Shown: positions 12,122-47,556, numbered from the stretch's first letter. The stretch: 64,000 nucleotides of DNA from an uncultured Candidatus Saccharibacteria bacterium (GCA_964425445.1 CAYRLY010000001.1:5537-69536), one strand, 5' to 3'. Notes: generated from the letters alone by a model not told the origin. Numbers and translations are program-made.

Positions 12122-12230
12122 CACATTATCAAGAGAGACGTTAGGGAATTGGCCCATTGAGCGTCCAGCAACCATCATTCACATAAGAGTGAACGGTGCT
12201 AAGTCCAAGCCGGATGGCAAGATAATTATT
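12122..12230 (+). promoter_or_regulatory. SAM-I (S-box) riboswitch in the metK leader
   Basis: Match to the SAM-I core: UAUCAAGAGAGACGUUAGGGAAUUGGCCCAUUGAGCGUCCAGCAACC ... GGUGCUAAGUCCAAGCC. The P1 3' strand GAUAAUUAUU pairs with the 5' AUUAUC. Confidence 0.8.
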
Positions 12231-12283: not shown

Positions 12284-13450
12284 ATGGAGAAAAGACTGTT
12301 CACCTCTGAATCGGTGACTGAGGGACATCCGGATAAGATGGCTGATCAAATTTCAGACGCCATTGTTGATGCGCTTTTGGAGCGCGACGAAAGAAGTCGA
12401 ATTGCAGTTGAAACGCTGCTTACAAATGGAGTTTGTGTAATTGCTGGTGAAGTTACAACAAGTGCCTATGTTGATATGGCAGAAATCGCCAGAGGGGTTA
12501 TCAAAGATATCGGATATAATGGTTGTGGTTTCCACCATGAAACTTCTGGGGTGATGACAGCAATAAAAGAGCAGTCATCAGATATTGCACAAGGTGTAGA
12601 CAGTTTTAAAAAGAGTGAAAGCGGGAAAATAGTTAAGGAAGATTTGGAACACTTAGGGGCTGGAGATCAGGGTTTAATGTTCGGTTATGCCTGTAACGAA
12701 ACACCGGAGCTGATGCCTCTGCCTATCGTTTTAGCTCATAAATTATGCCAACAATTAACAGAAGTTCGGAAGAAAAATATTGTGAAAGGCTTACGACCGG
12801 ACGGAAAGTCGCAGGTAACTGTCGAATATGTTGATGGTAGGCCAGAGAGGATTGACACCGTTTTAATCGCTGCACAACATGACCCAGATGTAAAAATTGC
12901 GACGATGAAAAAAGAAATTGAGAAAAATGTCATTGTGCCGATATTAAAAGAGCATGGTTATAAAATTGATTCGAAAACCAATGTTTATATAAATACTACT
13001 GGCAAATTTGTCATTGGTGGTCCGGAGGGCGACACAGGACTTACTGGTCGAAAAATAATAGTCGATACATATGGTGGATATGCTCGTCATGGTGGTGGTG
13101 CATTTTCTGGCAAGGACCCATCGAAGGTTGATCGCTCTGGTTCCTACATGGCCCGTTGGGTGGCGAAAAGCATTGTCAAGAGTGGATTAGCCGAAAAATG
13201 CGAAATCCAACTAGCTTATGCAATAGGGCGACCTGAACCATTATCAATTTATGTTGATACTTATGGTACCGGGAAGTTTTCGGAGGAGGAGATAGTAGAA
13301 AAAGTAAAGAAGAACTTTGATCTTCGACCTGGGATGATAATCAAAGAGTTGGGTTTGCGTAAACCGCTTTATCGACAGTGTGCTGCGTATGGACATTTTG
13401 GTAGAGATGATCTGAAACTTCCTTGGGAAAAAGCGAAGAAGATTAAATAA
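12284..13450 (+). CDS. metK: S-adenosylmethionine synthetase
   Basis: Bacterial MetK N-terminal signature [22 protein letters not shown]; [18 protein letters not shown]-terminal motif; RBS AGGAGG upstream. Confidence 0.92.
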
Positions 13451-19967: not shown

Positions 19968-20123
19968 ATGTTTCGAGCCGTTGGCGAGAAGCTTTTGGAA
20001 AGTTGTTCTAAGGTGATTAGATCCAAAAGTTTCTCGCCAAAAAATGCCAAAACAAAAACAGAAAGATCTGAAGAAAAATTGGCGAGGAACCTGGGGAAGG
20101 CAATCATAGAGTATGTCTCTTGA
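19968..20123 (+). CDS. possible 51-aa basic small protein (MFRAVGEKLLES...)
   Basis: ATG preceded by GAGGAG; contains an 18-bp near-perfect inverted repeat (19981-19998 and 20023-20040), which argues for an RNA structure instead. Confidence 0.2.
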   Translation: MFRAVGEKLLESCSKVIRSKSFSPKNAKTKTERSEEKLARNLGKAIIEYVS

Positions 20124-20279
20124 TTGACTTCTATAAGTCAATTAAGGGATGCTACGAAGCGATTTCCAAGTCGTTTTCGCGACACCCCTCAAAGGCGTAA
20201 GTGACGCGACAGGGCAATAATTAAAAAATTTTGTTCCCTATAAGTCCGCAAATCCTTGCGCCTTTTTTAATTGATAAAA

Positions 20280-20312
20280 GTTCGACAGAAAAAATGTTCA
20301 CCTGTTATAATA
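20280..20312 (+). promoter_or_regulatory. extended -10 promoter (TGTTATAAT) for pcrA, near-leaderless
   Basis: TGnTATAAT at 20304-20312, 10 nt before the ATG at 20323. Confidence 0.35.
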
Positions 20313-20322
20313 CAAAAGCTCA

Positions 20323-22218
20323 ATGAAAGATTTACTAAAAGATTTAAATAGTGCGCAGCAAGAAGCGGTCCGAACTACCGAAGGGCCGGTTTTAATTTTA
20401 GCTGGGGCAGGGAGCGGTAAAACTCGGGCATTGACTCACCGCTTGGCTTATCTAATTTCTGAGAAAAAAGTTTCCCCGACGAACATTTTGGCAGTTACTT
20501 TCACCAATAAAGCAGCGGGAGAAATGAAACAGCGGACAGAAGCGCTGCTAGCCGAAAGCCCTAAGTCGAAAGTCGAAAGTGCGAGGAGTATTCTTCCGTG
20601 GCTGGGAACCTTTCATTCAATTTGTGTAAAAATTCTGCGCCGAGAGGCAAAGCATATCGGTTACCCCTCAGGCTTTACGATTTATGATAGTCAGGATCAG
20701 CTTTCGGTTGTCAAGAAAATTATGCAAGATAAGGGGATCGACCCCAAACATTACAACCCAAATGCCGTTCTTCATTTCATTTCTGGGGCAAAAAACGAAT
20801 TTATCTCTCCTGAGGGTTACGAAAAGTATGTTAACTCGCCGTTCGAAGAAGTAGTCTCGACTGTCTATAAGGAATATCAAAAGTATCTTAAAACTGCTTT
20901 TGGTATGGATTTTGATGATCTTTTGGTTTTGTGTCTTAAACTTCTGACTGAGAACAACGAGATTTTGCAGAAATACCAGAATATTTTTAAATATATTCTG
21001 ATTGATGAATATCAGGACACAAATCACGTTCAATATCTTTGGGCGAAGTTGTTGTCAGAAAAGAGCAAGAATATTTGTGTTGTGGGTGATGATTCACAAT
21101 CAATTTACGGTTTTCGCGGGGCAAATTTTCGCAACATTCTCAATTTTGAGCGTGATTTTCCAGGGGCGAAAGTAATAAAACTAGAACAAAATTATCGCTC
21201 GACCGGTAATATTTTACGAGCAGCTGATGAACTCATCAAATATAATAAACAGAAGACTGAGAAGACTCTGTGGACCGAAAATCCAGTAGGATCTCCACTT
21301 CTTGTATACCAGGCGTTGAATGAAAAAGATGAAGCCGAATTTGTGGCGATGGAGACCAGGGGGCTGGCGGCAGTTTCGGGTAAATGGTCGGATTTTGCCG
21401 TCCTCTACCGTACCAACGCTCAATCGCGAGCAGTAGAGGAAGCTTTCATTCGCTTTGGCATTCCATACCGAGTAGTTGGTGGAATCCGTTTTTATGAGCG
21501 TAAAGAGATAAAAGATATCTTGGCTTATCTTAAATTAATTGCCAATCCTAATGATCGAGTATCTTTTGAGAGGATCGTAAACGTTCCAGCAAGAGGGATT
21601 GGATCAAAAACCCTGATAAAATATTTCTCTGGCCTATCCGGTCTAAACCCTGAAGTTCCGGAAAAGATTCAAAATTTTTTAGATATGGTACATCTTATCA
21701 GGGACAAGGCAAAAGAGCTTTCTGTGGCTGATCTGATAGATTTGATAGCAGAAAATAGCAGCTACAAGGAGTATATTTTGGATGGTACTCCGGAGGGCGA
21801 GGGGCGCTACGAAAACATCATGGAGTTAAAATCTGTTGCCGCATATAACGATGCCTTGAGCCTCGAAAAACCGCTAGAAAACTTTCTGGAAAAAGTCGCG
21901 CTGTATCAAGATGCCGATGATTATGATTCCAATTCAAACGTTGTTACTCTGATGACATTGCATGCTGCAAAAGGCTTGGAATTTAAAAATGTTTTTTTGG
22001 TTGGTGTCGAAGAGGGAATTTTACCACATTCTAGAAGTGTCGGAGATCAGAGTGAGGTAGAGGAAGAGAGACGACTTTGTTATGTAGGCCTCACCAGGGC
22101 GATGAAGAAGCTTTACATCTTATATGCCTCCGAGAGAATCTATTTCGGCAATCCGCAGATTAACCAGCCTTCGAGGTTTATTTGTGAAATACCCGACGAT
22201 GTCAAAAAAGAGTTATGA
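20323..22218 (+). CDS. pcrA: ATP-dependent DNA helicase PcrA/UvrD (compact, 631 aa)
   Basis: LNSAQQEAV...AGAGSGKTRALTHRLAYLI Walker A and UvrD motifs throughout. Confidence 0.88.
   Translation: MKDLLKDLNSAQQEAVRTTEGPVLILAGAGSGKTRALTHRLAYLISEKKVSPTNILAVTFTNKAAGEMKQRTEALLAESPKSKVESARSILPWLGTFHSICVKILRREAKHIGYPSGFTIYDSQDQLSVVKKIMQDKGIDPKHYNPNAVLHFISGAKNEFISPEGYEKYVNSPFEEVVSTVYKEYQKYLKTAFGMDFDDLLVLCLKLLTENNEILQKYQNIFKYILIDEYQDTNHVQYLWAKLLSEKSKNICVVGDDSQSIYGFRGANFRNILNFERDFPGAKVIKLEQNYRSTGNILRAADELIKYNKQKTEKTLWTENPVGSPLLVYQALNEKDEAEFVAMETRGLAAVSGKWSDFAVLYRTNAQSRAVEEAFIRFGIPYRVVGGIRFYERKEIKDILAYLKLIANPNDRVSFERIVNVPARGIGSKTLIKYFSGLSGLNPEVPEKIQNFLDMVHLIRDKAKELSVADLIDLIAENSSYKEYILDGTPEGEGRYENIMELKSVAAYNDALSLEKPLENFLEKVALYQDADDYDSNSNVVTLMTLHAAKGLEFKNVFLVGVEEGILPHSRSVGDQSEVEEERRLCYVGLTRAMKKLYILYASERIYFGNPQINQPSRFICEIPDDVKKEL
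20551..20588 (+). repeat. GTCGAAA heptamer tandem repeat, in frame in pcrA
   Basis: ctaagtcgaaagtcgaaagtgcgagg, translated PKSKVESARS. Confidence 0.55.
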
Positions 22219-22249
22219 TATAATGTTTGTTGCTGATTAAAATTTTCAA

Positions 22250-23227
22250 ATGAAAAATTTTTTTTACTCGCTGGTTTTGGTGTCAATTATTGTCCTCGGT
22301 GTCTCGACGACCAAAAATAGCTTTGCAGAAAGTGATTCTTTATCTTTGTCTCCGAACTATCCTTACAAAATTGTTGAAGTTCAACCAAGCGGGGAGACGG
22401 GCGACTTCTCCGGTGAGAGTTCAAATTTTGACCCAAGAAAAGTGGTCGCTGATTTAGGCCTAACTGTTTATCCGGAAGATCGGGTTTCGGCCTTTCCCGA
22501 TCCGAAGATTGGTATCGGTTCGGTTATCAATCTGGAACGAGCACCGGTTATAAAATTGCGCGATGGTAAGAAGGAATTAGAGCTGCGCAGCTGGGTTACA
22601 ACTGCTGGTGAGCTTTTGGCAGAAAAGGGAATCGAGCTTGGTCTTGATGATAAAACAAACTTTCGCTCTGATAGTAGAATCTATGACGGTATCGAATTAT
22701 CAATAATTCGAGTTGCTATTACGAAAGTGGTTGAAAGTGAGGCAATAAATTTTAAAACAATCAAAAAAGAGGATCCGAAGCTAGATAAGGGTAAAACTCG
22801 AGTTGAAACTGCCGGTGTAAAAGGGGAAAGAGAGCTAACATATCAGGTCACGAGAGAGGATGGAGTCGAAGTCTCTAGGGTACTCGTTGGTAATGAAGTG
22901 GTAAAGGAGCCGGTCAATCAAGTCGAGTATTACGGGACAAAGCCAGTGATCACGGTTCGATGTCGTTATAATGACACTGTTTTGGCTGCTTCGATAAAAT
23001 ACAAACAGGATCCGAACACAATTTGCAGTTTGATGATGAAAGAAAGCAATGGTAACCCGGGTAGCATCAATCCAAACGGTTATTATGGGCTTTTTCAGTA
23101 TGAGCTTGGCTTATGGACATCTGCCTCCTCAAAAGCTGGTTATAGCGGTGCCGATTGGAGCAACCCGACGGCGCAAATCTATACCACCTGTTATTTGTTC
23201 TCAATCGGTCAATCCTGGCGCTGGTAA
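22250..23227 (+). CDS. secreted DUF348 / G5 / transglycosylase-like domain protein (RpfB/YabE-like)
   Basis: Signal peptide; G5 domain (KTRVETAGVKGERELTYQVTREDGVEV); C-terminal ESNGNPGSINPNGYYGLFQY resuscitation-promoting-factor-like transglycosylase motif. Confidence 0.7.
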   Translation: MKNFFYSLVLVSIIVLGVSTTKNSFAESDSLSLSPNYPYKIVEVQPSGETGDFSGESSNFDPRKVVADLGLTVYPEDRVSAFPDPKIGIGSVINLERAPVIKLRDGKKELELRSWVTTAGELLAEKGIELGLDDKTNFRSDSRIYDGIELSIIRVAITKVVESEAINFKTIKKEDPKLDKGKTRVETAGVKGERELTYQVTREDGVEVSRVLVGNEVVKEPVNQVEYYGTKPVITVRCRYNDTVLAASIKYKQDPNTICSLMMKESNGNPGSINPNGYYGLFQYELGLWTSASSKAGYSGADWSNPTAQIYTTCYLFSIGQSWRW

Positions 23228-23275
23228 ATTAGATAAATCTTAATTGATTAATTAGCTGTCGATCGCGTATAAGCG

Positions 23276-23304
23276 TTGACAGTCTTTTTTTAATCGTCTA
23301 AAAT
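23276..23304 (+). promoter_or_regulatory. near-consensus sigma70 promoter
   Basis: TTGACA, 17-nt spacer, then TAAAAT. Confidence 0.6.
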
Positions 23305-23310
23305 ACTTAT

Positions 23311-23527
23311 TTGGTGACAAGCATCAGCTGGAGGTGAAGAGTTTTGAGAAGGCCACATTCAGGCGAGCAGAGGGACATCGAAGATGATATGCGGTTGGAG
23401 TCACTGGCCGCTAATGGCGGTGATCAGCTAGCCTTGCAGGTATTGCAGGCTGATCGTGTCCGAGCTCCCCAACAGGAAGCTCAATCGAGTCGAGACCGGG
23501 CCAAATAGGTGCCGGTCTTTTTTTAAT
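23311..23527 (+). ncRNA. GC-rich transcript of about 210 nt of unknown identity bounded by promoter and terminator. Alternatively it is the mRNA of a 54-aa ORF (TTG 23344 to TAG 23508, SD GGAGG).
   Basis: Promoter at 23276; gaccgg-(gccaaataggtg)-ccggtc hairpin followed by T7 at 23494-23524; GC-rich unlike the flanks. Confidence 0.4.
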
Positions 23528-23563
23528 TGATAAATAATTACTAAAAAGCTAAATTAGATACAT

Positions 23564-24406
23564 ATGAATAGACAAGAGCTGATAGATTATTTGCGCGCAA
23601 ACCAGATCTGGGCCAAAAGAACCATGGGTCAGAATTTTTTGGTTGATGAGCAAGCGCTGGCGCAAATAGTTGCTGCTGCTGATATTCAGTCTACAGATAC
23701 AATTGTTGAGATCGGCCCTGGCCTGGGGGTATTAACAGCGGAATTATCTAAACGTGCTGGTAAAGTGATCGCGATTGAAAAAGATGACAAATTTGCTGAT
23801 GTTTTAAAAACTCAATATTTAAATTCAAATGTCGAGATAGTTCATCAGGATGCATTGAACTTTGAACCTAACACTTATGGACTCATAGCCGAGAGCTATA
23901 AACTAGTTGCAAATATTCCATATAATATTACCTCTTTAATTATTCGAAAATTTTTGGAGGAAGAGGATAAGCCGGAGATGATGATTTTATTAGTCCAGAA
24001 GGAAGTCGCCGAAAGAATTATCGCGGAACCGGGTGATATGTCGCTTCTCGCTGTGTCTGTTCAATTCTATGCAGAGGTAAAGATTGTAGCAATTGTACCC
24101 AAGGAATCGTTTTTTCCTATTCCGAAGGTCGATTCGGCGATTATTAAGCTGAAAGTCAAAAGCCAAAAGCACAAAGTACAAAGCAGGGAATTTTTTCGAA
24201 TCGTGAAGTTTGGTTTTGCCGCCAAGAGGAAAACTCTGGAAAATAATTTATCTGCTGGCATGCATATTAAAAAGGATGATGCCCGTGATATAATTAAAAA
24301 AGCTGGTTTTGCTCCGAATATCAGAGCTGAAGGCTTAAGTGTTTTAGATTGGTTAAAATTATTTGAAACTTTGAAGGAGGGGAAAAGTGGACAAAAGAAA
24401 GTATGA
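23564..24406 (+). CDS. rsmA: 16S rRNA (adenine1518-N6/adenine1519-N6)-dimethyltransferase
   Basis: MGQNFLVDEQAL...IVEIGPGLGVLT KsgA signature. Confidence 0.9.
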   Translation: MNRQELIDYLRANQIWAKRTMGQNFLVDEQALAQIVAAADIQSTDTIVEIGPGLGVLTAELSKRAGKVIAIEKDDKFADVLKTQYLNSNVEIVHQDALNFEPNTYGLIAESYKLVANIPYNITSLIIRKFLEEEDKPEMMILLVQKEVAERIIAEPGDMSLLAVSVQFYAEVKIVAIVPKESFFPIPKVDSAIIKLKVKSQKHKVQSREFFRIVKFGFAAKRKTLENNLSAGMHIKKDDARDIIKKAGFAPNIRAEGLSVLDWLKLFETLKEGKSGQKKV

Positions 24407-25829
24407 AAGCTTCGATGAGAAAATTAGCATCGAAGACCGGCCCGATAAAAAGACGGAAACAACAATAATTGAAAGAGTTGTTGAAACTCCGGCCAAAGTC
24501 TTGGACGAAACGATTGAAATAACCAAAACGGTTGAAAAAGCCATAACCGACAATACTTCGACTAAAAAAGCCAAAGAATATTGGGAGATACTTGGACCGG
24601 GTTTGACCACCGGTGCTTCCGATAATGACCCTTCGGGAGTCGCTACTTATTCTCAAACCGGCGCTGTTTACGGATACAAGTTTCTTTGGCTGTCTCCTCT
24701 GGCTTTTCCTTTGATGGCTACCATTTCGGAGATGTGTGCCAGAATCGGTTTGGTTACCGGCCGCGGTTTGGCGGCGAATATAAGACAATTCTTTCCTCGT
24801 TGGATATTAATTTTGTGCACGATTCTTTTATTTGTTGCTAACACTTTTAATATTGGAGCCGATCTTGGAGCGATGTCGGAGGCGGTTAGGCTTTTCCGTC
24901 CGGAATGGAACTATTTTAATTTGATAATCATTTTTGCGTTGGCAATAATGCTTTTGCAAATCTTTACCAGCTATAAAAAATATGCCAGCTATTTGAAGTG
25001 GATGTCTTTAGTGCTTCTAACCTATATTTTTTCCACTCTGATGATTGACGGTCTCCCGTGGAGATTGATCGGAATTTCGGCAATCACGCCGTCTTTTGGT
25101 TTTAGTCGTGATGAAATTTTTATTGTCACCGGTGTCTTGGGGACAACAATTTCACCGTATTTGTTTTTTTGGCAGACCTCTCAAGAAGTTGAAGCTGATA
25201 TTGAGCGTGGCTATGAAACTGTCGTCATGCGCCAAGAGGCGGTTAACAATAAGCAAATAAACGATATGAGGGTTGATGTTTGGTCGGGAATGTTTCTGGC
25301 TCACTTGGTGATGTTTTTTATTATCACCGCCTGTGGAGCAACTCTAAATACCATCGGAATCACTAATATCTCTTCGGCCGCGGAAGCCGCCAGCGCCCTT
25401 CGGCCGTTTGCCGGTGATTATTCCTATTTTTTATTTGCTCTCGGAATTATCGGGACGGGAGCCTTGGCGATACCGGTTTTGGCTGGCGCTTCGTCTTATG
25501 CTCTTGCCGAAACTTTCGGTTGGAAACAGGGGCTTCGCTATAAACTTCGCCAGGCTTATTCTTTTTACGGGATAGTGATAATTTCCATGGTGATCGGAGT
25601 ATTGATTAACGTGATCGGCCTCGACCCGATAAAGGCTTTAATCTATTCGGCGGTTTTAAACGGTTTGGTTGCGCCGATAATTTTAATTCTAATTCTGATT
25701 TTAGCTTCAAACGGGAGATTAATGGGTAAATACAAAAATGGCATTTGGTCAAAAATCATCGGTTTGGCGACCGTTGTTCTTATGATACTAGCCGGAGCGG
25801 CCACCGTTTGGCTATTAATTTTTGGGTAA
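24387..25829 (+). CDS. mntH: NRAMP-family divalent metal (Mn2+/Fe2+) transporter with an N-terminal extension of about 60 aa
   Basis: GPGLTTGASDNDPSGVATYSQ Nramp signature; about 11 TM helices. Confidence 0.85.
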   Translation: MDKRKYESFDEKISIEDRPDKKTETTIIERVVETPAKVLDETIEITKTVEKAITDNTSTKKAKEYWEILGPGLTTGASDNDPSGVATYSQTGAVYGYKFLWLSPLAFPLMATISEMCARIGLVTGRGLAANIRQFFPRWILILCTILLFVANTFNIGADLGAMSEAVRLFRPEWNYFNLIIIFALAIMLLQIFTSYKKYASYLKWMSLVLLTYIFSTLMIDGLPWRLIGISAITPSFGFSRDEIFIVTGVLGTTISPYLFFWQTSQEVEADIERGYETVVMRQEAVNNKQINDMRVDVWSGMFLAHLVMFFIITACGATLNTIGITNISSAAEAASALRPFAGDYSYFLFALGIIGTGALAIPVLAGASSYALAETFGWKQGLRYKLRQAYSFYGIVIISMVIGVLINVIGLDPIKALIYSAVLNGLVAPIILILILILASNGRLMGKYKNGIWSKIIGLATVVLMILAGAATVWLLIFG

Positions 25830-25834
25830 AAAAA

Positions 25835-25851
25835 CCGAGCCTAGGGCTCGG
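25835..25851. terminator. bidirectional terminator hairpin between mntH and the convergent GC-rich gene
   Basis: ccgagcc-tag-ggctcgg with an A-run before and a T-rich tract after. Confidence 0.55.
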
Positions 25852-26167
25852 GTGGGTGCGTTTTCGACTCCTTGCAGAGCTCGATGTAATGCCTCGCAGC
25901 ATCAGTCCGGTGGTAGTGGGCTGCCTCACCGCTTAGGTGGGCGATCACTCGGTTGTTCTGAATGATCTTCGGCAGTTCGCCGTCTCTCACGGTTAGGTCG
26001 ATCGTCGTTCCTTGTAGATCGGGAAACTCAAGCATCCTGGTTTCGATCACCCTGAACTCGATGATCAGGGCGAGCATGTTGTCTTGGTCTGCTTCTGCGA
26101 GAAAGACAATCCGCCCCATATCTTCTCGCTCTGGGCTGTAGACAGCGGTCCGGGCTGCAATCTGCAT
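25841..26167 (-). CDS. GC-rich small hypothetical protein (108 aa; alternative upstream start at 26200)
   Basis: ORF with AAGGAGGTG 7 nt before ATG 26167; composition differs sharply from the flanking mntH and rsmI. Confidence 0.45.
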   Translation of the reverse strand: MQIAARTAVYSPEREDMGRIVFLAEADQDNMLALIIEFRVIETRMLEFPDLQGTTIDLTVRDGELPKIIQNNRVIAHLSGEAAHYHRTDAARHYIELCKESKTHPPEP

Positions 26168-26232
26168 CCTGACCACCTCCTTATAGGCCGAGAATAGCAT
26201 AATGAGTAGATTTTTGCTACAATTTCTTCACA

Positions 26233-26907
26233 ATGAGTAATGGTAAAATATATTTTATTGCCACTCCGATAGGTAACCTCGGTGACATATCAGAGAGAAC
26301 CAGAGAAGTTCTTTTATCTGTGGATTTGGTTGTTTGTGAAGACACTCGTGTTAGTGGCCGTCTTTTAAAACATTTGAAATTAAAAAAGTCGTTACTTTCT
26401 CTGCACCAACACTCTGATGACGGAAAGATAAACCATATAATTCATGAAACAGAAATTGGAAAAAACATTGCATATCTATCAGATTCCGGTACTCCGGGAA
26501 TCTCTGATCCTGGGCAGAAATTAGCCCGTGTTGCTCGTGATCTCGGGGTAGAAATAATTCCAATACCCGGACCGTCAGCGCTAGCAGCGGCAATATCGGT
26601 ATCTGGCATGATCGAGAAAGAGTTCTATTTTGCCGGTTTTTTGCCAAAAAAGAAGGGGCGGGAAACGAAGTTCAAGGAGTTGGCAATGCTTAATATTCCG
26701 ATAATAATATATGAAGCTGCACCAAGAATCGAGAAAACATTGACGGGAATTTTGCGGTTTTTTGGTCCGAATATGGAGGTTTTTCTTGCTCGGGAGATAA
26801 GTAAAAAATTTGAAGAGTATTGGGGTGGTGAAATTGAAGTTGTAATTAATAGTTTAAGTACCCACATAATTAAGGGGGAATTCACCCTAATTATTAGTAA
26901 AAAATAA
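26233..26907 (+). CDS. rsmI: 16S rRNA (cytidine1402-2'-O)-methyltransferase
   Basis: KIYFIATPIGNLGDISERTREVL...VCEDTR tetrapyrrole-methylase-fold RsmI signature. Confidence 0.85.
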   Translation: MSNGKIYFIATPIGNLGDISERTREVLLSVDLVVCEDTRVSGRLLKHLKLKKSLLSLHQHSDDGKINHIIHETEIGKNIAYLSDSGTPGISDPGQKLARVARDLGVEIIPIPGPSALAAAISVSGMIEKEFYFAGFLPKKKGRETKFKELAMLNIPIIIYEAAPRIEKTLTGILRFFGPNMEVFLAREISKKFEEYWGGEIEVVINSLSTHIIKGEFTLIISKK

Positions 26908-27014
26908 TATTTTTTGAAATTACCCTTTACCCATCGGCGCCTCAGGCGCTTGTTTTTGTGTTGAAAATGGGGTTTAGTTAAATTAGTTCCCACTCTGTTT
27001 CGGAGGCGATCACC

Positions 27015-47033: not shown

Positions 47034-47120
47034 GCCGAGGTGGTGGAATTGGTAGACACGCAGCCTTGAGGTGGCTGTGCCCGCAAGGGCGTGGAGGTTC
47101 AAGTCCTCTCTTCGGCACCA
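47034..47120 (+). tRNA. tRNA-Leu (anticodon GAG)
   Basis: 87-nt cloverleaf, 1 nt after tRNA-Val, with acceptor gccgagg/cttcggc and anticodon loop uuGAGgu. Confidence 0.85.
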
Positions 47121-47163
47121 TTCAACTCGCACTGCTCGCTCATGGCAGGCCAAAAATTTATTT

Positions 47164-47556
47164 ATGCCAGATAACTTTTTTACAACTGAATATCTTTTTG
47201 CAACAGTTGCACCGACAAACAAAGTCACTTTTTTTGTTCTTCTTGGTGCCTACGTTATTTTTATTGTTTTGGCATATTTGACCAGCATCAATAAAAAAAT
47301 GCACAAACAGCTCAAAGCCTGGGTTTTTAACTATTTTTTAACTCTTGGCACAGTCGGTGTAATAATTTCATTTTTCCGTTCACAAAGTATACCTTATCTT
47401 GGAAGCAGATTCGCGATGTTGGTAGTTATTTTCACGGCGATTATCTGGTATTTTGCGATTGTTTTTTACACACTGTTTAAAATGCCCAACGAAGTAAAAA
47501 TGACTAAAAACGAAGAAACTTATCAGAAATATTTACCGAAGAAAAAAAATAAATGA
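47164..47556 (+). CDS. small membrane protein (130 aa), hypothetical
   Basis: Start at ATG 47164. The ORF track start at 47071 lies inside tRNA-Leu and is rejected. Three or four TM helices. Confidence 0.4.
   Translation: MPDNFFTTEYLFATVAPTNKVTFFVLLGAYVIFIVLAYLTSINKKMHKQLKAWVFNYFLTLGTVGVIISFFRSQSIPYLGSRFAMLVVIFTAIIWYFAIVFYTLFKMPNEVKMTKNEETYQKYLPKKKNK

Follow-up and report, generated by a model that had tools for sequence, protein, structure and literature searches.

Introduction

Conserved bacterial small proteins of about 50 amino acids or fewer have reportedly been brought to light by comparative genomics and ribosome profiling, a field that the reviews of Storz et al. and the 2019 study of Sberro et al. 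are said to cover. Genome annotation systematically misses small proteins, and those of the Candidate Phyla Radiation (CPR), whose genomes are tiny and hold many genes annotated without a function, are almost wholly unexplored. Sda of Bacillus, a protein of 46 aa, is a helical-hairpin inhibitor of the histidine kinase KinA. Erm methyltransferases, which are homologs of KsgA, are classically controlled by leader peptides, and KsgA itself completes the 30S subunit and reportedly influences the fidelity of initiation. In Mycobacterium tuberculosis, the genes rpfB, ksgA, and ispE form an operon and are co-transcribed, with an RNA switch located 5' of rpfB (PMC6009663).

Here, we analyzed a small open reading frame (sORF) in a stretch of DNA of 64,000 nt, hereafter the window, from an uncultured Candidatus Saccharibacteria bacterium. 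As in M. tuberculosis, the gene of an RpfB-like muralytic protein with G5/DUF348 domains is followed by ksgA; unlike in M. tuberculosis, the two are separated by a small gene that has a promoter and a terminator of its own (PMC6009663). The RpfB-like/ksgA neighborhood is ancient and has been described in M. tuberculosis (PMC6009663), but the small gene inserted into it has not. A reading of this region from the sequence alone had left open whether it holds a small RNA or a gene for a 54-aa peptide. Our results indicate that the sORF is a conserved bacterial small-protein gene of no described family, and that it is neither a small RNA nor a demonstrable attenuator. As judged from the sequence comparisons, it is probably a monocistronic, lineage-restricted gene that has its own promoter, Shine–Dalgarno (SD) sequence, TTG start codon, 54 codons, and a UAG set into a conserved terminator.

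How does this gene compare with the described systems? It falls into the size class of the conserved bacterial small proteins, has its own promoter, SD, and terminator as they do, lies below the usual annotation cut-offs, and is recognizable only by purifying selection and conserved synteny. Unlike them, it has no sequence or fold relative in the libraries searched and occurs in one narrow Patescibacteria clade, and its product, predicted to be soluble and charged, differs from the commonest class of small proteins, which consist of a single transmembrane helix. Like the ermCL and ermBL leaders and trpL, it combines a short ORF with a terminator hairpin, and it lies directly 5' of a gene of the RrnaAD (KsgA/Erm) family; unlike these leaders, it lacks alternative hairpins, is conserved over its full length, and has 54 codons rather than 8–36. 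The downstream gene also differs from that of the erm systems, being ksgA with a promoter-like element of its own. Finally, a promoter-to-terminator transcript of ~200 nt that holds a small ORF is also seen in SgrS/SgrT, RNAIII/delta-haemolysin (hld), and SR1/SR1P; unlike in those, the sORF here fills three quarters of the transcript, and extra structure is only weakly indicated.

Organization of the Small Gene

The sequence-only reading had described, between the RpfB-like gene and ksgA, a near-consensus promoter, a GC-rich stretch in which GGAGG is followed 9 nt later by a TTG that opens a 54-aa frame, and a stem-loop terminator ending in seven Ts. All of these elements are present (Table 1), and both the promoter and the terminator are conserved across eight alleles, the latter with compensatory changes.

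Table 1. Coordinates of the small gene and its flanking signals, counted from the first letter of the window.
Feature	Position	Strand	Details	Source
Terminator of the upstream RpfB-like gene	23255..23291	+	hairpin GCTGTCGATCGCGTATAAGCGTTGACAGT and T-run; dG −14.9 kcal/mol	hairpin/T-run scan
Predicted sigma-70-type promoter of the sORF	23276..23304	+	−35 TTGACA (23276–23281), 17-nt T-rich spacer, −10 TAAAAT (23299–23304); 11/12 match	promoter scan
Putative 5' UTR of the sORF	23310..23343	+	~30–36 nt; predicted transcription start	sequence
5' motif, presumed 5' end of the transcript	23310..23318	+	TTTGGTGAC	
Extended SD	23330..23337	+	GGAGGTGA (8 nt); GGAGG at 23330–23334, 9 nt to the start codon	
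sORF	23344..23508	+	54 codons; TTG start (23344–23346), TAG stop (23506–23508); product MRRPHSGEQRDIEDDMRLESLAANGGDQLALQVLQADRVRAPQQEAQSSRDRAK	ORF list
Intrinsic terminator of the sORF	23494..23524	+	5' arm GACCGGGCC (23494–23502), loop AAATA (23503–23507), 3' arm GGTGCCGGTC (23508–23517, one bulged G), T7 (23518–23524)	
ksgA promoter-like element	23527..23566	+	TTGATA, 17 nt, TAAATT; 9/12 match; no SD	promoter scan

In the promoter scan, only two 11/12 matches were found in the region 20000–27000, and the sORF promoter is one of them. TTGA of the −35 box is invariant in the eight alleles, six of which have the full TTGACA (L016 has TTGACT and L017 TTGATT), and the −10 box reads TA(A/C/G)AAT in all of them, with the spacing unchanged. 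The DNA immediately 5' of the −35 box is 92% variable, and homology between the strains restarts at 23267–23276 (at exactly 23276 in L010, L018, L019, and L020). The rearranged locus L010, which has a divergently oriented sortase gene in the upstream position, nevertheless retains the promoter, and the unit is intact from the −35 box onwards; the unit must therefore carry its own promoter. It is conservation, rather than the match to a consensus, that marks the unit as more than a product of chance: all eight distinct alleles preserve the −35 and −10 boxes, the SD, the TTG, the reading frame, and the TAG, and the hairpin as well.

The promoter overlaps the terminator of the RpfB-like gene. The 3' arm of that terminator (GTTGACAGT) includes the −35 box, and the spacer of the promoter coincides with the terminator's T-run. 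In L015, L018, and L016, equivalent hairpins can be read that are built with different 5' partners. Further downstream, the 5' motif is identical in five of the eight alleles, the variants being TTTAGTGAC in L013, TTTGTGAAC in L016, and TTTGGCTGAC in L017.

Every allele has an SD of the GGAGG type ~6–9 nt 5' of the TTG, which in the window is the first start codon after an in-frame stop. An internal ATG at 23389 (codon 16), noted earlier as an alternative start that would shorten the peptide, does exist. Its use as the start was rejected, since L017 has TGG (Trp) at this position and it is the TTG that follows the SD in every allele. Gene calls for the sORF exist on contigs from several public (Logan) assemblies. 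The GC content of the sORF is 56% compared with 40% in the window, and this richness comes mainly from the amino-acid composition, as the sequence suggests (GC1 0.72), together with a moderately raised GC3 (0.52, compared with 0.36–0.45 in the neighboring genes) and the GC-rich terminator.

The terminator was overlooked by a simple terminator scan. RNAfold gives it −16.4 kcal/mol in the window, and the hairpin is found in all eight alleles with −14 to −19.4 kcal/mol. It is followed by a tract of T5–T7 in the seven alleles that reach it, the contig of L017 stopping at the last base of the hairpin. Compensatory changes convert a G.U pair of the stem into G-C, A-U, or C-G in other alleles. The UAG stop codon spans the junction of the loop and the 3' arm, alike in 8/8 alleles.

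In the mechanism that we propose, the near-consensus sigma-70-type promoter, part of which lies within the terminator of the RpfB-like gene, would drive a transcript of ~215 nt. This transcript would consist of a short 5' UTR with the 8-nt SD, the TTG, the 54 codons, and the UAG in the terminator loop.

Evidence for Coding

The comparison set consists of eight distinct alleles from one narrow clade, and the coding statistics thus rest on few independent lineages. In the alignment of the eight alleles, the variable columns of the sORF are distributed as 15, 10, and 32 over codon positions 1, 2, and 3, respectively. By the Nei–Gojobori method, the in-frame dN/dS is 0.08–0.19 for gap-free close pairs and 0.1–0.44 for distant pairs, at which dS is saturated; for the three most distant alleles, the alignment was made on the protein sequences, a procedure that biases dN towards lower values. 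In the shifted frames, the ratio is broadly ~1–2, with values of ~0.3–0.6 for the two closest pairs, which have too few substitutions to judge, and ~0.6–2.9 for all others. All indels are multiples of three (−3, −6, +6, and +24 nt), and all eight alleles have intact ORFs of 52–62 aa with no in-frame stops. None of the eight alleles has lost the TTG start, the SD, or the TAG stop.

The position-3 bias, the low in-frame dN/dS, the restriction to in-frame indels, and the kept SD, TTG, and TAG together strongly support, at the level of sequence comparison, that the sORF is a translated gene under purifying selection on its amino acids. Consequently, of the two alternatives left by the sequence-only reading, the 54-aa peptide gene is the one that agrees with the data. 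Part of the conservation at the C-terminal end may have another origin: the codons of D51 and R52 fall within the terminator stem GACCGG, which explains their conservation, so that the constraint on these two residues may be on the nucleotides rather than on the protein.

Distribution and Population Structure

The search for homologs of the peptide that the sequence-only reading had proposed was productive. The family comprises six 90%-identity clusters among 5.8 billion proteins; the five further clusters, found in relatives by word-indexed and exhaustive profile searches, have products of 52–62 aa with 94% to ~47% identity. A profile search of 1.84 billion cluster representatives yielded no extra true members, its other matches being two Sel1-repeat proteins only. 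No paralogs of the sORF were found by tblastn within the window or in the distant ksgA loci L002–L006, and a DNA-pattern scan of metagenomes with the conserved spacer of the ksgA promoter returned three known loci and one chance match (L026). The metagenome-assembled genome L001, labeled "Patescibacteria group bacterium", has a KsgA with 86% identity to that of the window. On the other hand, distant loci whose KsgA is 31–52% identical, two of them labeled Saccharibacteria, are without the sORF unit. According to these searches, the family is confined to a narrow group of Patescibacteria.

On sufficiently long contigs, the gene order is UvrD, G5/RpfB-like, sORF, ksgA, Nramp, a minus-strand ORF of 108 aa, and TP_methylase. 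The position between a cell-wall gene (RpfB-like) and one for ribosome maturation (KsgA) gives a faint hint to the role of the sORF, faint because the whole neighborhood is collinear in all members.

The alleles show an unusual pattern of divergence. In L018 and L020, ksgA is 100% identical to that of the window over long stretches, whereas the sORF is 52–62% identical. When 22793–23520 and 24056–24235 are compared with L018, L019, L020, L001, and L015, stretches of 100% identity alternate with patches of 52–80%, and the sORF is one such divergent patch in L018, L019, and L020. The scatter of divergent patches among identical stretches indicates that the locus is a recombination mosaic. For the same reason, a comparison of synonymous rates between the sORF and ksgA, considered as a test for RNA constraint, is uninformative and was set aside. 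Nevertheless, the sORF is intact as a 57%-identical allele in strains with 100% identity in ksgA over hundreds of bases, and the occurrence of very divergent yet intact alleles in nearly identical backgrounds supports a function. Together with the strong promoter and the strong SD, these intact alleles in a recombining population suggest that the sORF is probably well expressed and useful to the cell.

The neighboring RpfB-like gene (22250–23227) also varies between strains. Compared with L018 (1939–2886) and L019, its DUF348/G5 part is kept and its C-terminal catalytic domain is swapped: Pfam assigns an SLT/transglycosylase-like domain in the window and a DPBB_1 (RlpA-like) domain in L018 and L019. 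The C-terminus in L014 differs from that in the window and looks DPBB-like by eye.

The Predicted Product

The AF2 model, built with seven sequences, contains helices at residues 12–25 and 28–40, with a pLDDT of 86–87 in the core and low confidence in the tails. Twelve positions are invariant in the family (R10, D11, R17, L18, L21, G26, D27, A30, A36, D37, D51, and R52), and the core motif is RD-x(4)-[MW]RL-x-[SA]LA-x(2,3)-GD-x-[LI]A-x(5)-AD. The sORF thereby adds one orphan family with a defined core motif. Signal peptide, transmembrane segment, and cysteine motif are all absent from the product, and one of its tryptic peptides is LESLAANGGDQLALQVLQADR. These features point to a soluble cytoplasmic mini-protein with charged, disordered tails, in which a conserved amphipathic helix-turn-helix core would span roughly residues 11–40.

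What could such a small protein do? Searches of Pfam, NCBIfam, PHROGs, and the PDB by sequence gave no significant match to the product, the best being the N-terminus of AcpS at E=0.15, and a Foldseek comparison of the AF2 model with the PDB gave nothing at E≤0.001. Because the predicted domain is so small, the product most likely acts by binding a larger partner or by self-associating, and an enzymatic role is unlikely. A shape analogy is offered by Sda: the product is likewise predicted to form a pair of short amphipathic helices, antiparallel or kinked, flanked by flexible tails, and by this analogy it would bind a larger protein, although it is unlike Sda in sequence.

Two further assignments were considered and rejected. 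The core, RLxSLAAxxGDxxAxxxL, resembles the junction of two Sel1 repeats (PF08238), and the family profile finds two proteins with repeated matches, one of which (P0008) is a Pfam-confirmed Sel1-repeat protein. Unlike Sel1-repeat proteins, the product holds at most one helix-turn-helix unit; five members scanned against Pfam gave no Sel1 match even at E≤10, and hhalign gave a probability of 26% over 24 columns. A double-glycine leader peptide, as in precursors of bacteriocins or pheromones, was also discarded: the residue before G26 is G or S (SG in three alleles), and no C39-peptidase ABC exporter is found among the neighbors UvrD, the G5 protein, KsgA, Nramp, and TP_methylase.

Relation to ksgA and Alternative Explanations

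The downstream gene is that of KsgA/RsmA, as shown by a score of 245 bits against TIGR00755 (cut-off 171), with the Erm model staying below its cut-off. With 19% variable columns, the 55-nt spacer between the sORF and ksgA is better conserved than any other part of the region. It carries the promoter-like element, whose −10 box ends 8 nt before the ksgA ATG (23564). The same layout, a −10-like box ending 5–10 nt before the start codon and no SD, is found in about 10 of the 52 genes of the window. These genes (starting at 22250, 26233, 36460, 50481, 59988, and others) show almost no overlap with the 21 SD-bearing genes. TAAATT of ksgA itself falls under the 5/6 threshold of the −10-box scan. 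The pattern suggests that leaderless mRNAs are widespread in this Patescibacteria genome, and from the position of its −10 box, the missing SD, and the shared layout, ksgA probably gives rise to a leaderless mRNA from a promoter of its own, which the terminator of the sORF insulates.

Could the small gene nevertheless be a leader that attenuates ksgA according to translation? A ribosome following closely behind the polymerase would melt the 5' arm of the terminator and either permit read-through into ksgA or occlude the leaderless promoter, and the supply of KsgA would thereby be coupled to translational capacity. A stop codon placed at the loop/3'-arm junction, as seen in 8/8 alleles, and 55 nt upstream of the ksgA ATG fits such a device, as does the fact that the unit stayed with ksgA in L010 after the upstream gene had been replaced. 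Leader-peptide control is classical for the KsgA-homologous Erm enzymes. A study on E. coli further describes a Rho-independent terminator a few bp after a translated gene as almost completely repressed (PMC4824070), which would favor the attenuator. However, ksgA needs no read-through, as the conserved spacer provides its own promoter-like element with the layout of ~10 other genes, and read-through would poorly serve an internal AUG without an SD. Furthermore, neither single nor consensus folds contain a conserved antiterminator pairing with either terminator arm, the sORF has no run of regulatory codons, and purifying selection acts along the whole peptide, unlike in typical leader peptides; the downstream gene is also KsgA and not Erm. 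The stop-in-terminator layout recurs at the ORF 25841–26200 on the minus strand, where it faces a convergent gene, and therefore looks like genome compaction. We accordingly regard an attenuator as unlikely, and the same low likelihood attaches to a combined version, in which the unit would be a gene and a translation-sensing device at once, with initiation at the TTG and the pace of the ribosome setting the read-through into or over the ksgA promoter. If true, the latter would be a CPR-specific feedback loop that links the quality of ribosomes to the supply of KsgA. The conserved peptide itself might act on KsgA or on the small subunit. Unless a link of the sORF to KsgA or the ribosome is shown, the general picture is unchanged.

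The remaining explanations place the function in the RNA. A purely non-coding small RNA, 6S-like, SRP-like, or of another kind, in which the open frame would be accidental, could be suspected from a GC-rich islet of ~215 nt that runs from promoter to terminator in an AT-rich genome, and the reverse strand folds with z=−2.1. At the gathering threshold, however, the matches of Rfam 15 in the whole window are limited to tRNAs and a SAM riboswitch, with none on the sORF unit. Even at E≤10 over 23200–23600, the sole match listed is a chance AT-rich one downstream (E=5). The scan suggested in the sequence-only reading thus yields no known RNA that would explain the unit. The excess of changes at position 3, the low in-frame dN/dS, and the exclusively in-frame indels would be unexpected for such an RNA, and the strong SD and the start codon are conserved. 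Folding of the transcript, which had also been suggested, gave a divided result: the terminator hairpin is conserved, but the overall stability of the plus strand is ordinary (z=−0.61 against dinucleotide shuffles). AGGAAGC, which had been likened to helix 8 of SRP, was rejected as evidence, since no SRP model matches and the motif is lost in divergent alleles (L014, L016, and L018). The small RNA that had been offered as one alternative therefore finds no backing in Rfam, folding, or motif conservation, and we consider this reading highly improbable. Somewhat less remote, though still doubtful, is a dual-function RNA, in which the transcript would encode the peptide and also act as a structured or base-pairing regulatory RNA. 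The RNAalifold helices within the ORF, which pair in 88% of cells, show nine pairs changed on both sides, compared with 4.0 ± 1.5 in column shuffles (1/500), and slid controls are far lower. The structure was, however, derived from the same alignment, pairing between invariant Ala GCN codons adds apparent covariation, and the covariation term of RNAalifold (+0.67) gives no net support. The pairs of the minimum-free-energy (MFE) structure of the window are kept in four distant alleles at 33/46, 27/46, 26/46, and 27/44, where synonymous recodings lead one to expect ~28, 25, 22, and 24. Summed by us over the three most distant alleles, this amounts to 80 pairs kept compared with ~72 expected, or roughly z=2. 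The conserved 5' motif without an obvious role and the raised GC3 also agree with an RNA function. Against it, the fold energy is ordinary compared with synonymous recodings in seven of eight alleles (z=+0.17 for the window sORF; significant in one), as it is compared with dinucleotide shuffles, the sORF takes up 165 of the ~215 nt and leaves little space for a seed region, and the transcript has no Rfam relative. Local mRNA structure inside the sORF and some constraint at the RNA level are thus weakly and non-decisively indicated by the alignment, alongside the small-protein gene that we prefer.

Two other candidate RNA elements were dropped. A hairpin that would sequester the SD (CUGGA/UUCAG) has a compensatory change in L001 but is lost from the distant alleles, and the likeness of GCGGUGAUCAGCU to the 16S 3' end/h45 was treated as chance, as other alleles are without it.

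The region also illustrates the compact signals of this lineage: a terminator that overlaps a promoter, a stop codon in a terminator loop, and neighboring genes that are apparently leaderless.

Other Features of the Window

A second GC-rich islet, at 25841–26200 on the minus strand, contains an ORF of 119 codons (called as 108 aa in related loci) that has a GC3 of 0.70 and belongs to no Pfam family. The ORF is conserved wherever a related locus reaches this region, and its TAG lies at the loop/3'-arm junction of a terminator hairpin (25851–25835). An ORF of 161 codons that starts with GTG (47071–47556) begins within a tRNA gene (47034–47117), which makes it unlikely to be a real gene, at least with this start. 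The SAM riboswitch of the window belongs to SAM-I (RF00162, 52.2 bits) and is located at 12123–12228, upstream of a gene that starts at 12284.
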